Shown in pieces: positions 8,098-11,519 of a DNA stretch of 18,609 bases. Position numbers and translations under genes: made by a program. The first letter of the stretch is position 1. Every line of letters begins with the position of its first letter. The stretch lies in contig JBBIJB010000048.1 in the NCBI GenBank assembly GCA_037446215.1, positions 1-18,609 on the forward strand. Reading direction: 5' to 3'. Under the pieces are notes generated by a model, which was not told where the DNA came from, did no database searches, and saw only the letters and a list, made by a program, of their open reading frames with translations. The DNA comes from Armatimonadota bacterium. Lineage in GTDB: Bacteria > Sysuimicrobiota > Sysuimicrobiia > Sysuimicrobiales > Humicultoraceae.

Positions 8098-9276
8098 GTG
8101 AAGCAACCTGCTGTCAGGCCCCTGGACTACTACCTGCTGGACGAGATGCTGGACGAGGAGGAGCGGATCCTGCGCGACACGGTGCGCAGGTTCGTCGACC
8201 GCGAGGTCTTACCGCACATCGGAGGATGGTGGCTTCGAGGCGAGTTCCCGCGCCATCTCGCGCAGAAGCTCGGGGAGATCGGCGTGCTCGGTGCGAACCT
8301 GCCAGCCGAGTATGGGGCAGCGGGTGTAAACAATGTCGCGTACGGCCTCATACTGCGGGAGCTCGAGAGGGGCGACTCGGGCCTTAGGTCGTTCGCCTCC
8401 GTGCAGGGCTCACTGGTCATGTACCCGATCTACGCGTTCGGGAGCGAGGAGCACCGCCGGCGGTGGCTCCCGCGACTGGCGGCCGGAGAGGCGATCGGGT
8501 GCTTCGGGCTGACCGAGCCGAGCGCCGGGTCAGACCCCGCGTCGATGCAGACACGGGCGCGGCGGCGTGGAAACCGCTGGGAGATCTCCGGCACGAAGAT
8601 GTGGATCACCAGCGGGTCGCTGGCAGACGTTGCCGTGATCTGGGCCAAGGACGATGAGGGTGAGATCCGCGGCTTCCTGGTCGAGCGCGGAACGCCCGGC
8701 TTCTCGGCCCACGAGCTGAAGACGAAGGCGAGCATGCGCGCCTCGGACACCTCAGAGCTCGTGCTCGACCGTGTCGAGATCGAAGACGACTGCAGGCTGC
8801 CGAAGGCGGAAGGGCTTCGAGCGGCGTTGGCCTGCCTGACCCAGGCACGGTACGGCATCGCGTGGGGTGCCGTCGGCGCCGCCTCGGCCTGCTTCGAGGA
8901 GGCCCTCGGCTACGCGTGCGACCGCGTCGCGTTCGGCAGGCCGATCGCGGCAACCCAGATCATCCAGGAGCGCCTGGTGGACATGATGACCGAGATAACC
9001 AAGGCGCAGCTGCTCGCCCACCGGCTCGGCCAGCTCAAGGACAGCGGGAGGATGAACTACGCGCACGTATCGATGGCGAAGCGCAACAACGTGCGCATGG
9101 CGCTCGAGGTCGCGCGCTCCGCTAGGACGATCCTCGGAGCCTACGGGATTACTACCGAGTACCAGTGCATGCGCCACGCGGCGAACCTGGAGTCCGTCGA
9201 CACCTACGAGGGGACCTACGACATCCACACCCTGATACTTGGAAGGGAGATCACCGGCTTCAGCGCATTCGGCTAG
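8098..9276 (+). CDS. gcdH: Acyl-CoA dehydrogenase, glutaryl-CoA dehydrogenase type
   Basis: 392 aa, GTG start with GGAGG SD; RELERGDSGLRSFASVQGSLVMYPI, GCFGLTEP, KMWIT, ARYGIAWG, KRNNV and TYEGTYDIH are GCDH-type signatures. Confidence 0.85.
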   Translation: MKQPAVRPLDYYLLDEMLDEEERILRDTVRRFVDREVLPHIGGWWLRGEFPRHLAQKLGEIGVLGANLPAEYGAAGVNNVAYGLILRELERGDSGLRSFASVQGSLVMYPIYAFGSEEHRRRWLPRLAAGEAIGCFGLTEPSAGSDPASMQTRARRRGNRWEISGTKMWITSGSLADVAVIWAKDDEGEIRGFLVERGTPGFSAHELKTKASMRASDTSELVLDRVEIEDDCRLPKAEGLRAALACLTQARYGIAWGAVGAASACFEEALGYACDRVAFGRPIAATQIIQERLVDMMTEITKAQLLAHRLGQLKDSGRMNYAHVSMAKRNNVRMALEVARSARTILGAYGITTEYQCMRHAANLESVDTYEGTYDIHTLILGREITGFSAFG

Positions 9277-9298
9277 GTGTCCCGGCGCGCCCGCCCAC

Positions 9299-9336
9299 AA
9301 AAACAGAGAAACGGCGGTCTGACCCGCCGTCCCTCT
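9299..9336 (-). terminator. Rho-independent terminator of the minus-strand peptide transcript
   Basis: Minus RNA AGAGGGACGGCGG-gucaga-CCGCCGUUUCUCU-GUUUUU: 13-bp stem whose two G-U wobbles would be A-C mismatches on the plus strand, followed by a U-tract. Confidence 0.85.
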
Positions 9337-9354
9337 TGGGCAAGCGCAGGGCGG

Positions 9355-9399
9355 CTACTTGCCCTTCTTCTTAGCGGCCTTCTTCGCCTTCTTCGCCAC
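9355..9399 (-). CDS. 14-aa Lys/Ala-rich peptide MAKKAKKAAKKKGK
   Basis: GTG GCG AAG AAG GCG AAG AAG GCC GCT AAG AAG AAG GGC AAG TAG; perfect SD AAGGAGG (9414-9408) with 8-nt spacing; terminator stem begins 18 nt after the stop. Confidence 0.75.
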   Translation of the reverse strand: MAKKAKKAAKKKGK

Positions 9400-9463
9400 C
9401 GTCCTCGCCTCCTTCTGCTTGGAAGATGGACGGCAGTATGGTGCCGTCGCATGTTCGTTCGCT

Positions 9464-9474
9464 ACTAGATGTTG
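9464..9474. promoter_or_regulatory. NrdR-box-like motif (CAACATCTAGT on the minus strand)
   Basis: Resembles the core of NrdR boxes (CnACATCTAGT type); single copy only. Confidence 0.35.
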
Positions 9475-9498
9475 ATATTCCTTCTCCACCCATCACAA

Positions 9499-9527
9499 AT
9501 TGTTGTTTCTCTTGTGGGGCAAGACAA
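9499..9527 (-). promoter_or_regulatory. Possible sigma70-type promoter of the Lys-rich peptide gene
   Basis: TTGTCT (9527-9522)-N17-AACAAT (9504-9499) in a conspicuously AT-rich stretch. Confidence 0.4.
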
Positions 9528-9533
9528 GCCGCT

Positions 9534-9560
9534 GCAGGAAAGGTCGACCGACAGCAGAAT
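9534..9560 (+). promoter_or_regulatory. SigH-like promoter of the SLH/SPOR/NAGPA gene
   Basis: GCAGGA-aaggtcgaccgacagca-GAAT = AGGA-N17-GAAT; ends 9 nt before ATG 9570, which has no good SD. Confidence 0.6.
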
Positions 9561-9569
9561 GACGGGGTA

Positions 9570-11519
9570 ATGGGAGCTGGTAGTGCCTGGCGGTGCCGAG
9601 CGTCAGCCGGCCTGGCCGCGGTCGTGCTAGTGCTAGTGGGGGCCTGGGGGCCGGAGCGTGCGGCGGCCCAGCCTGCCGACGTCACGGGCCACTGGGCAGA
9701 AGAGCAGGTCCTGGATCTACTCAGGCGCGGCATCATCTCCGCGGATCCCGAGGGCCGCTTCAACCCGGACGGGGCCATAGGGCGCGGCCAGTTCGTGGCT
9801 TGGCTGGTCTCGGCACGGGCAATTCCAAGGATCCGCCTCGAGGCGCGACCGTTCACGGATGTTCCGACGTCTCACGCCTTCGCACCAGAGATCGAGACCG
9901 CGGCCGCCTACGGCATGGTCGTTTCGGGCGGGGCCTTCAGGCCCGATTCCCCGATGCTCCGCGCCGACGGCTTCGAAGCACTGCTCCGCACGTTGGGCCA
10001 CACCTTCGAGTCATCGTACATGTCGCTGGCTCCGCTGCCCTTCGTGGACGCGGACGGACTCAGCACGGTGGCCCGCGGCGCCGTCGCGGTTGCGGTGAGG
10101 AGCGCCCCGCCTCTTCTCCGCGAGCCGCCCTCCGATCGACTGCGGCCGGGTGAGGTGATGACCCGCGCCGAGGCGGCCAGCCTCGTCTGGGGCTACATCC
10201 AAGCCGTAGAGCGGGGGGGGCGCTTCACGTTCGTCCGGCCGCTGGGCAGTGGCGTAACCTTGGTTCTCGAGAAGAGGGGAGCGCTGCGGTCTCTCCCCGC
10301 CTGGAGGGTCCAGATCGGCGCATTCGCCGAGGAGGATAGGGCAAGGCAGCTGGCCTCGTCGATGCGTGCCCGCGGTTTGGCCGCATTCGTGGACCTCCTG
10401 GACGACCTCCACAAGGTCCGGGTCGGGAGCTTCGCGACGCGCGGCGAGGCGGTCGAGCTGCAGCGGCGGCTCTCCGGCGAAGGGTTCCAGACAGCGCTCG
10501 TCGTGACCCTACCGGACTACGAGGTGCTGCCAGGGCCTTTCTGGACGGGAGCGGTGCTGATCGAGGCCCCGGGGGGTGCCCGCCTTCGGCCGGCGCTGGC
10601 GCGGGGAGCGGAGATGGGGCGCGGGAGGACGAGCGACGCGGCGCGCAGGACGGGCGCGATCGCGGCGGTCAACGGCGGGTTCTTCGCGAGCGGCGGCGGC
10701 CCGCTCGGCTGCCTCGTGATAGACCGCGAGGTGGTCGCGTCGCCGCAGCCCGGGCGCACCTGTGCGGGCATCCACGAGGACGGCGGGGTCCTCTTCGACG
10801 TCGTGCGACTTGAGGCCGCGGCCACTGCGGATGGGCGCTCAACGACCATCGACGGCGTCAATCGGGCCCGGGGATCCGACGAGATCATCCTCTACCGCCC
10901 TGCGTTCGGCGCCTCGACGCGCACGAACAACTTCGGCGCGGAGGTGATCCTGGCAGGCGACACGGTACTGAGTGTCGTAGACGGAAGGGGGAACAACTCA
11001 ATACCCGCGGGCGGCTCGGTGCTCTCCGGGCATGGGCGGGGCCGGTCGGCGCTGCTGACCGCGTTCCGGCCCGGAGAGAGGGTTGTTGCGGCGGCGCGTC
11101 TGGGCCCGGTCTCCGGCGACCCGAGGTGGTCCGGGGTCCGCCACGTGATCGGCGGCGGGCCGCGCCTGCTGGCCGCGGGTCAGTTCGTAGGAGGAGAGGG
11201 GTTCAGGCCGTCCTTCTCGGACCGGAGACACCCGAGAACGGCGCTGGGAGTGCTTGCCGACGGTCGCGTCCTGCTGGTGACAGTGGACGGGCGACAGCCC
11301 TATCACAGCCTCGGCATGAACCTGCTGGAGCTCGCGATGCTGCTTCTCCAACTCGGCGTCACCGACGCGCTCAACCTCGACGGCGGAGGGTCGACGACCC
11401 TCGTGGTCGGCGGCTCCGTCGTCAACCTTCCCTCTGACGAAGCAGGCGAGAGACCGGTGAGCGATGTGCTGCTGGTGCTGCCGCCGGAGTCGGCCGGGCG
11501 CCGGCATCCCGTGCAGTGA
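9570..11519 (+). CDS. Secreted SLH + SPOR + phosphodiester glycosidase (NAGPA family) protein
   Basis: 649 aa from ATG 9570; signal peptide ending ERAAA; SLH repeats (DVTGHWAE..FNPDGAIGRG; FTDVP..FRPDSPMLRA; FVD..LRPGEVMTRAEAA); SPOR (WRVQIGAF...KVRVGSFATRGEA); NAGPA motifs AAVNGGFF, GGGPRLL, RHPRTALG, TVDGR, ALNLDGGGST. Confidence 0.9.
   Translation: MGAGSAWRCRASAGLAAVVLVLVGAWGPERAAAQPADVTGHWAEEQVLDLLRRGIISADPEGRFNPDGAIGRGQFVAWLVSARAIPRIRLEARPFTDVPTSHAFAPEIETAAAYGMVVSGGAFRPDSPMLRADGFEALLRTLGHTFESSYMSLAPLPFVDADGLSTVARGAVAVAVRSAPPLLREPPSDRLRPGEVMTRAEAASLVWGYIQAVERGGRFTFVRPLGSGVTLVLEKRGALRSLPAWRVQIGAFAEEDRARQLASSMRARGLAAFVDLLDDLHKVRVGSFATRGEAVELQRRLSGEGFQTALVVTLPDYEVLPGPFWTGAVLIEAPGGARLRPALARGAEMGRGRTSDAARRTGAIAAVNGGFFASGGGPLGCLVIDREVVASPQPGRTCAGIHEDGGVLFDVVRLEAAATADGRSTTIDGVNRARGSDEIILYRPAFGASTRTNNFGAEVILAGDTVLSVVDGRGNNSIPAGGSVLSGHGRGRSALLTAFRPGERVVAAARLGPVSGDPRWSGVRHVIGGGPRLLAAGQFVGGEGFRPSFSDRRHPRTALGVLADGRVLLVTVDGRQPYHSLGMNLLELAMLLLQLGVTDALNLDGGGSTTLVVGGSVVNLPSDEAGERPVSDVLLVLPPESAGRRHPVQ

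Follow-up and report, generated by a model that had tools for sequence, protein, structure and literature searches.

A lysine-rich 14-codon micro-gene conserved across the phylum CSP1-3, with a predicted sigma-H-type promoter and a structured leader

The DNA analysed here, hereafter called the window, is an 18,609-nt stretch of an Armatimonadota bacterium (contig JBBIJB010000048.1, assembly GCA_037446215.1), and its minus strand carries, between two plus-strand genes, a micro-gene consisting of a very short lysine-rich open reading frame (ORF) with a promoter-like region, a folded leader and an intrinsic terminator (Table 1). By direct reading, the sense codons after the GTG start are GCG AAG AAG GCG AAG AAG GCC GCT AAG AAG AAG GGC AAG, so that Lys takes 8 of the 14 codons, every one of them AAG. 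This exclusive use of AAG is explained by the codon usage of the genome, which it mirrors, as three genes of the window contain AAG 22 times and AAA not once. An initial annotation, made from the letters alone, had described the GTG-started ORF with 8 of 14 Lys codons and the Shine-Dalgarno (SD) sequence AAGGAGG at 8 nt, a 7-bp leader hairpin and a terminator working on the minus strand only, and had read them as a stand-alone transcription unit. The ORF, the SD sequence and the hairpin were all confirmed on the minus strand, and a scan of positions 8800-10000, which returned three terminator-like sites against 0.6 expected, assigned the terminator to that strand alone. As both flanking genes are on the plus strand, the minus-strand terminator is not explained by any minus-strand gene. 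The idea of a stand-alone unit was likewise borne out, both by compensatory changes in the terminator and by the convergent gene that follows it in most relatives. Across both strands of the 2.16-Mb assembly, the search for an SD sequence and a start followed by an ORF of at most 35 codons with at least 35% Lys found a single site, which is this micro-ORF; as the sole site of the scan and as part of a conserved unit, it is more than a chance occurrence.

Table 1. Features of the micro-gene and its surroundings, in window coordinates
Feature	Position	Strand	Details
Micro-ORF	9399-9355	minus	GTG start 9399-9397, M/V-AKKAKKAAKKKGK, TAG stop 9357-9355; 14 residues
Shine-Dalgarno AAGGAGG	9414-9408	minus	8-nt spacer to start; columns invariant in 28 of 28 aligned rows
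Putative sigma-H-type promoter	9484-9455	minus	-35 GAAGGAATA (9484-9476), 12-nt spacer, -10 AGCGAACGA (9463-9455); predicted start ~9448
5' hairpin	9448-9429	minus	GACGGCA (9448-9442) with UGCCGUC (9435-9429), variable loop; probably the first element of the transcript
Alternative leader helix	9436-9396	minus	CUGCCGUCC (9436-9428) with GGACGGUGG (9404-9396, including the GUG start); CUUCC (9425-9421) with GGAGG (9412-9408)
3' hairpin	9364-9338	minus	last ORF codons GGGCAAG (9364-9358) with CUUGCCC (9344-9338); loop UAGCCGCCCUGCG
Intrinsic terminator	9336-9297	minus	stem 9336..9305, 13 pairs, 8 of them G-C, 6-nt loop, then GTTTTTGTGG
Inverted repeat ACAA-N-TTGT	9503-9495	minus	ACAATTTGT; between the micro-gene promoter and the promoter-like motif of the SLH gene; possible operator
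Sigma-H-like motif	9534-9562	plus	GCAGGAAAG-N11-GCAGAATGA, just 5' of the ATG of the SLH gene; outside the micro-gene
Glutaryl-CoA dehydrogenase gene, convergent	8098-9276	plus	Pfam acyl-CoA dehydrogenase domains and PDB sequence search; outside the micro-gene unit
SLH-SPOR-NAGPA cell-wall protein gene, divergent	9570-11519	plus	Pfam; likely start ATG 9570

The unit recurs in related genomes. In a BLAST comparison with 40 relatives, a stretch of about 200 nt, running from the promoter-like blocks to the terminator, was found at 78-89% identity in 16 genomes and at 70-74% in three more; both the frame and the SD sequence, whose conservation in relatives the initial annotation had named as a check, are kept. 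Among the 19 distinct aligned rows with a 45-nt ORF (10 distinct ORF sequences), variable sites are distributed 0/0/6 over the three codon positions and all six are synonymous, including a TAG/TAA exchange in the stop codon. The other ORF lengths, of 42, 39 and 36 nt, are all in frame, and the start codons GTG, ATG and TTG interchange among homologues. Nineteen of the 28 distinct rows of type 1 (the type to which the window copy belongs), drawn from several genera, share one and the same peptide, and in a second genomic slot, between a lyase and an MlaD gene, the orthologues range from 11 to 30 residues. The 35 distinct peptides (10-30 residues) consist overall of 58.5% K, 24.2% A, 6.8% G, 3.8% R and 2.8% T; Asp and Glu are absent from all 35, in a scan that was filtered for Lys content and not for acidic residues.

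The pattern indicates that selection acts on the product, where it favours a polycationic, acid-free make-up with small residues over any exact sequence or fixed positions, because variation is confined to wobble sites, the lengths stay in frame, the start codons interchange, the SD sequence is invariant and acidic residues are lacking. It also makes it very probable that the micro-ORF is a translated, stand-alone gene. An extended 44-aa in-frame ORF (9489-9355) was considered and ruled out, since the indels in the leader alignment are not multiples of three.

As the 14-mer is below the 20-aa minimum of the family scans and of the sequence look-up, relatives of 20-30 residues were used in its place. 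These reached no Pfam or NCBIfam cut-off, and none of the four looked up was present among the roughly 15 billion predicted proteins of the collection searched. The micro-gene is a real gene, conserved across the phylum CSP1-3 and unannotated. Its distribution was assessed with a covariance model, R1, built from 28 distinct sequences. R1 matched 33 of the 34 genomes in the family of the window, the miss being a genome (G005) that is 92% complete, and 69 of the 94 genomes of the phylum CSP1-3/Sysuimicrobiota at E <=1e-3. With the assembly of the window (G000; 2.16 Mb, 91% complete) left aside, the matches by family were 32 of 33 genomes in f1, 22 of 22 in f2, 7 of 12 in f5 and 4 of 23 in f4, together with the single genome searched in each of f3, f6 and f7 (1/1 each). 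Two genomes flagged as unpublished, G015 and G024, are included in the counts and in R1; no conclusion depends on these alone, and the row from G024 is identical to a public record. According to the part of PMC11604079 that was available, Fervidifonticultor belongs to this phylum, which comprises one class and one order; the phylum-level and order-level searches returned the same 94 genomes, in keeping with a one-order phylum. The weaker R1 matches from other families, 20 in number, comprised 18 with a Lys-rich micro-ORF, one that is apparently frameshifted and one that is spurious.

Sigma-H promoters have a spacing of 11-12 nt between their two elements. In the window the spacer is 12 nt and the -35 element fits RNAGGAWWW, the upstream half of the Bacillus sigma-H consensus RNAGGAWWW/RNNGAATWW (PMC8510167, available in part). 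The core AGGA-N17-18-GAA(C/T) is conserved in every type and family of the micro-gene, and the paralogues described below keep both promoter blocks around a spacer of unrelated sequence, the -10 elements of the type-2 copies being CGCGAATAT, CGAATAG or CGAATAC. With only spacers of 11 or 12 nt allowed, a relaxed sigma-H motif was present within 120 nt upstream of 52 of the 65 distinct micro-gene sequences of the phylum, and a loose form upstream of 60. A sigma-70 promoter scan of positions 8800-10000 gave no site. The initial annotation had placed a promoter at TTGTCT (9527-9522)-N17-AACAAT (9504-9499); these letters are present as given, and the promoter role passes to the sigma-H-type site, the sequence around the proposed -35 TTGTCT showing no conservation in the 20-locus alignment. 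By its motif, we infer that the micro-gene is served by a sigma-H-type promoter. With a predicted start near 9448, the mRNA would begin with the 5' hairpin.

Nine sigma-70-family proteins are encoded in G000, and one of them is a SigH orthologue of 212 aa (contig C102, 3189-3824, minus strand), which scored 366 bits against NF006148 (cut-off 208) and 349.4 against TIGR02859 (cut-off 294.8); SigH exceeded the cut-off in 84 of the 94 genomes of the phylum. Genome-wide, the relaxed motif occurs at 19 sites in G000, including that of the window, against 2-9 in five block-shuffles, and an intermediate form occurs at 6 sites against 0-3. Five of the G000 sites (C75:8598-8626, C88:2901-2930, C122:1710-1738, C19:1331-1359 and C29:22194-22223) precede, at distances of 22-137 nt, ftsA, spoVS, mraZ, a glmU-like gene and a gene for a sigma factor of the SigB/F/G family (SigF-like). 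Such placement suggests that division and transition genes form a conserved SigH regulon, and spoVS is described as sigma-H dependent in Bacillus thuringiensis in the available part of PMC8510167. A search for the C-terminal domain of Spo0A gave no match in G000, an assembly that is 91% complete. If a SigH regulon with ftsA, mraZ, spoVS and the SigF-like gene does operate in a non-Firmicute whose assembly gives no Spo0A match, this would bear on the origin of the sporulation sigma cascade.

The transcript is predicted to be strongly structured. Over 9460-9296, the RNA has a predicted folding energy of -71 kcal/mol (z = -4.25), which none of 200 shuffles reached. The 5' hairpin has five core pairs that are invariant in all 28 rows around a loop that varies, and the type-2 paralogues keep it as GACGG-GNRA-CCGUC. 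An alternative helix, in which the 3' arm of this hairpin pairs with the GGACGG just before the start, excludes the 5' hairpin; it is the helix that RNAalifold returns as the consensus in place of the hairpin, and it is also the minimum-energy fold of the leader, with the SD sequence fully paired in 21 of the 28 rows. From folding and conservation, a bistable leader that gates initiation is probable within the family of the window. Downstream, the 3' hairpin, which draws in the last codons of the ORF, is paired in 94.8% of cells and has one pair changed on both sides, and in the terminator 7 of the 13 pairs have changed on both sides over the 28 rows. Of the alignment columns, 17 of the 56 in the leader vary, compared with 6 of the 45 in the ORF and 32 of the 56 that lie 3' of it. 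The 13-nt loop that follows the stop codon (9338-9357 region) is nearly invariant within the family, and no covarying pairing partner was found for it. Pairing of this loop with the start region was dropped as a candidate, as inspection of the aligned rows by eye showed TTG-start or changed-loop rows without a compensating change.

Two lineages of paralogues were distinguished by their surroundings. Of 41 fetched loci of type 1, the copy in the window, 39 have the SLH-SPOR-NAGPA gene head-to-head with the micro-gene, and 38 have the glutaryl-CoA dehydrogenase gene after it in convergent orientation; 13 of the 41 are the same contigs obtained by two routes. In most of them the dehydrogenase gene lies 76-130 nt past the stop of the micro-ORF; the distance is 233 nt in one and 2431 nt in another, and 734-853 nt in loci that have an extra co-directional ORF, about 210 aa long and with a lipoprotein-like N-terminus, in between. 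This lipoprotein-like ORF, between the terminator of the micro-gene and the dehydrogenase gene, was seen in several genera (L009/L049, L013/L031, L016/L029, L018/L039, L030 and L048). Co-directional ORFs downstream of the micro-gene occur in some loci only and differ from one locus to another. A second family keeps the SLH neighbour in seven loci and the dehydrogenase in none; linkage to the SLH-SPOR-NAGPA gene is thus found in two families, and that to the dehydrogenase is confined to the family of the window. Type 2 is a second copy with the full architecture, seen in 17 of 20 fetched second matches. The remaining three (L085-L087), weak R1 matches in the genus of the window, are ordinary coding sequence, so that this genus has a single copy. 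In families f1, f5 and f7 the type-2 site is flanked by a beta-eliminating lyase gene and by an MlaD gene in convergent orientation, and its peptides extend from VKKKAAKKKGK (11 aa) to AKKA-type repeats of 29-30 residues. A further form of the micro-gene, in family f4, stands upstream of a peptidase M29 gene.

Against PDB sequences, the product of the convergent gene matched 2eba at 3e-151 and other glutaryl-CoA dehydrogenases at 1e-116 to 1e-137, compared with 2e-73 or weaker for other acyl-CoA dehydrogenases. In the long ORF of the SLH-SPOR-NAGPA gene, the homology of relatives begins at residue 76-88, and a signal-peptide-like N-terminus is read from the ATG at 9570. The AGGA-N17/18-GAAY motif on the SLH side is present in 12 of 28 distinct loci; the copy in the window, AGGA-N17-GAAT, ends about 10 nt before this ATG. 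The mRNA of the SLH gene may therefore be leaderless or nearly so, and its sigma-H-like motif suggests co-regulation with the micro-gene. The inverted repeat between the two promoter-like motifs belongs to a block, ATCAA.AAATTGTG, that is conserved in the 20-locus alignment and has the form AAATTGTGG in the second family.

The most likely role is that of a transition-state polycationic peptide that would bind nucleic acid or ribosomes by charge. RNA polymerase carrying SigH would start near 9448 and, stopping at the intrinsic terminator, produce a monocistronic mRNA of about 150 nt. The leader would fold in two exclusive ways, one with the 5' hairpin, leaving the SD sequence in a weak hairpin only, and one with the helix that buries both the SD sequence and the GUG, and this choice would gate translation. 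The product, a Lys/Ala peptide of 14 residues with a net charge of about +8, would then bind polyanions, either RNA or ribosomes, or else DNA, at times when SigH turns on its regulon, alongside genes for cell division and the transition state. Taken as a whole chain, from SigH control through the gated leader to the charge-based binder, this scheme is in our judgement slightly favoured by the sequence evidence.

Several observations weigh against it. The -10 element in the window has GAAC in place of GAAT and departs from the consensus at its WW positions, and the strict Bacillus consensus has no site in G000, as in five block-shuffles. The cells of the alternative helix are paired to 95.8% and 97.1%, with variation limited to one-sided G-U changes, and the helix is missing from the second family, where the second hairpin is a different one. 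Conservation along the whole mRNA, non-coding loops included, is about equal to that of the ORF, which leaves a function at the RNA level possible. No common functional theme was found among the neighbours of the paralogues and look-alikes (beta-eliminating lyase, MlaD, peptidase M29 and AbiEi-like genes). Finally, the matches in RNA libraries are assembled contigs of relatives only, which are uninformative on strand, start and level. The four coded RNA runs that a search returned shared at most 0.20 of the words with the locus and gave no piece at 99% or above; one RNA-library contig stops at 9451, near the predicted start, and, coming from a single study, was not counted as evidence.

A more specific form of the charge-based scheme would make the product a tiny ribosomal or ribosome-associated protein, held in an rRNA groove, with the leader hairpin as an autoregulatory mimic of the rRNA site. 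The size class, the polybasic make-up, the strong SD sequence and the stand-alone unit would suit such a protein, as would the peptide shared unchanged among several genera (19 of 28 rows, see above) and a structured, conserved leader of the kind used for feedback in ribosomal-protein mRNAs. It is nevertheless unlikely, as orthologues in the same slot vary from 11 to 30 residues without fixed positions, which is unlike the fit to a defined rRNA pocket. Linkage to ribosomal genes was not seen either, the longer relatives match no ribosomal-protein family, and a sigma-H-type promoter would be unusual for a core ribosomal protein. A different emphasis would place the function in the RNA, as a small regulatory RNA, possibly with two functions, in which the ORF tunes stability or conformation and loops such as that after the stop codon pair with targets. 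As the non-coding parts are strongly conserved, a dual role of RNA and peptide is possible, and both the fold z-score and the invariant post-stop loop point in this direction. As the main effector, however, the RNA is quite unlikely: the wobble-only variation, the in-frame indels, the interchange of starts and the acid-free peptides need selection on the product, the paralogues keep the type of peptide while their leader and 3' sequences differ, and no Rfam family is reached at its gathering score.

The abundance of Lys codons directly before a terminator also recalls an attenuator, and a regulatory leader peptide had been named as an alternative in the initial annotation. Here, ribosomes stalled on Lys codons would cause read-through of the terminator, for instance as antisense into the convergent gene, which is truly a glutaryl-CoA dehydrogenase gene, of lysine catabolism; a very short ORF with 8 of its 14 codons for one amino acid fits this, and the CCGCC after the stop could pair with the GGCGG of the 5' arm of the terminator. 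In most loci, however, there is no co-directional gene downstream to be regulated, the dehydrogenase being convergent in 38 of 41 loci and unlinked in the second family, where the seven loci keep the SLH gene only. The sole candidate antiterminator (5 pairs) shows no compensatory change, its observed percentage of pairing being reached by 500 of 500 shuffles, and the non-Lys residues are constrained as well, being small and never acidic. A lysine-sensing attenuator is accordingly very improbable, and with it the leader-peptide alternative loses its footing. Antisense control of lysine catabolism was rejected as a candidate, as dehydrogenase synteny is limited to the family of the window. Least credible of all is an RNA sponge that titrates CsrA/RsmA through GGA motifs, to which we give almost no weight. 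Several GGA motifs are present and Rfam gave a weak full-length alignment to PrrB/RsmZ, yet this scored 15.8 bits (E 0.55) against a gathering threshold of 44, CsrA (PF02599) had no match in G000, an assembly 91% complete, and the coding signature of the micro-ORF stands in any case.

Several known systems offer a comparison with the charge-based peptide preferred here. The tiny ribosomal proteins bTHX, bL37, bS22, bL38 and, in archaea and eukaryotes, eL41 are similarly small, highly basic and often missed by annotation, some being encoded by separate small genes, and they act by neutralising rRNA charge. The micro-peptide differs in consisting of Lys, Ala and Gly only, in the 11-30-residue range of its orthologues and in having no ribosomal gene neighbourhood; at 14 residues it is, to our knowledge, shorter than any of them. 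With E values of up to 10 allowed, the 20-30-residue relatives matched no ribosomal-protein family of NCBIfam or Pfam. H1-like Lys/Ala-repeat proteins (Hc1/Hc2, the Burkholderia H1-like proteins and the Rv3852 family) share with it a low-complexity, polycationic sequence of the AKKA type, and a 30-residue relative gave sub-threshold compositional matches to these families at E 0.059-0.9, the best scores being 13.9 bits for Rv3852_fam (cut-off 100), 11.4 for hist_H1_lk_Burk (80), 9.7 for Hc2 (135) and 11.2 for Pfam HC2 (40). In contrast to the micro-peptide, these nucleoid proteins exceed 100 residues, with cut-offs of 40-135 bits against the 10-14 bits of its relatives, and the 14-mer is too short to score. 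By sequence scoring, the 20-30-residue relatives thus fall outside both the tiny ribosomal and the H1-like families.

With the promoters of the Bacillus sigma-H (Spo0H) regulon, which in B. subtilis includes ftsAZ, spoIIA and spoVG, the micro-gene has in common the bipartite motif with a spacer of 11-12 nt, a SigH orthologue in the host and the motif before spoVS, ftsA and a SigF-like gene. It departs from them in a host outside the Firmicutes, which gives no match to the Spo0A C-terminal domain, and in the GAAC of the -10 element in type-1 copies, the assignment being made by motif only. Attenuator leader peptides of the trpL/hisL type likewise have a terminator behind a very short ORF that is rich in one amino acid, and the polycysteine leaderless ORFs of mycobacteria (bioRxiv 10.1101/834739, available in part) are also very short and enriched in a single amino acid. 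Unlike attenuator leaders, the micro-gene lacks a regulated downstream gene and a supported antiterminator, and the selection on its composition extends beyond the Lys codons.

A limited literature search on lysine-rich small ORFs and leader peptides, microproteins and small RNAs of Armatimonadota found no description of such genes, which is not proof that they are unpublished. What is new here is the census of the unit across the phylum, with its two lineages of paralogues, the predicted sigma-H-type promoter and the leader that can sequester the SD sequence and start. The micro-gene stands as an example of a gene of 14 codons that is kept across a phylum, with a predicted alternative-sigma promoter, a leader able to hide the SD sequence and a covarying terminator, and that is invisible to gene callers; it also provides a concrete, synthesisable peptide and an RNA of 150 nt with which minimal polycationic peptides in bacteria can be probed. 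A far broader proposal is that oligolysine peptides of 10-30 residues form a widespread class of unannotated micro-proteins, in CSP1-3 induced by SigH together with division genes. They would serve as dedicated polycations of the ribosome or nucleoid, either as a counterpart of polyamines or as a minimal ribosomal or nucleoid component, with the mRNA leader acting as a feedback sensor. This proposal is speculative, and we consider the odds to be against it.

A scan for the exact pattern in one genome per prokaryotic species gave 33 loci. This element accounts for 23 of them, under the titles Armatimonadota, Candidatus Fervidifonticultor, Candidatus Nitrosymbiomonas, Armatimonadetes bacterium CSP1-3 or simply 'bacterium', and four others are out-of-frame false positives that resemble the N-termini of ordinary genes. 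Four loci are from Rokubacteria/Methylomirabilota and carry two tandem Lys-rich micro-ORFs. In these (L033, L038, L046 and L052), MAKKKATKKKKGK is followed about 45 nt later by MKKKAKKKKK, each with its own SD sequence; the pair lies 3' of an AbiEi_2-like gene, and the differences across the four genomes are synonymous. The last two loci are single in-frame look-alikes, one from Azambacteria (L035:2517-2555) and one from Woesearchaeota (L022:2517-2552), with Lys-rich micro-ORFs of 11-12 residues 3' of AAGGAGG, the one in Azambacteria having a terminator-like hairpin downstream; both could be chance matches in AT-rich DNA. Among the sequences of the phylum, L118 (G026:C2:21060-21418) is a relative with an AKKA repeat of about 35 codons and an apparent frame break inside the repeat, which may reflect a sequencing error or a decaying copy.

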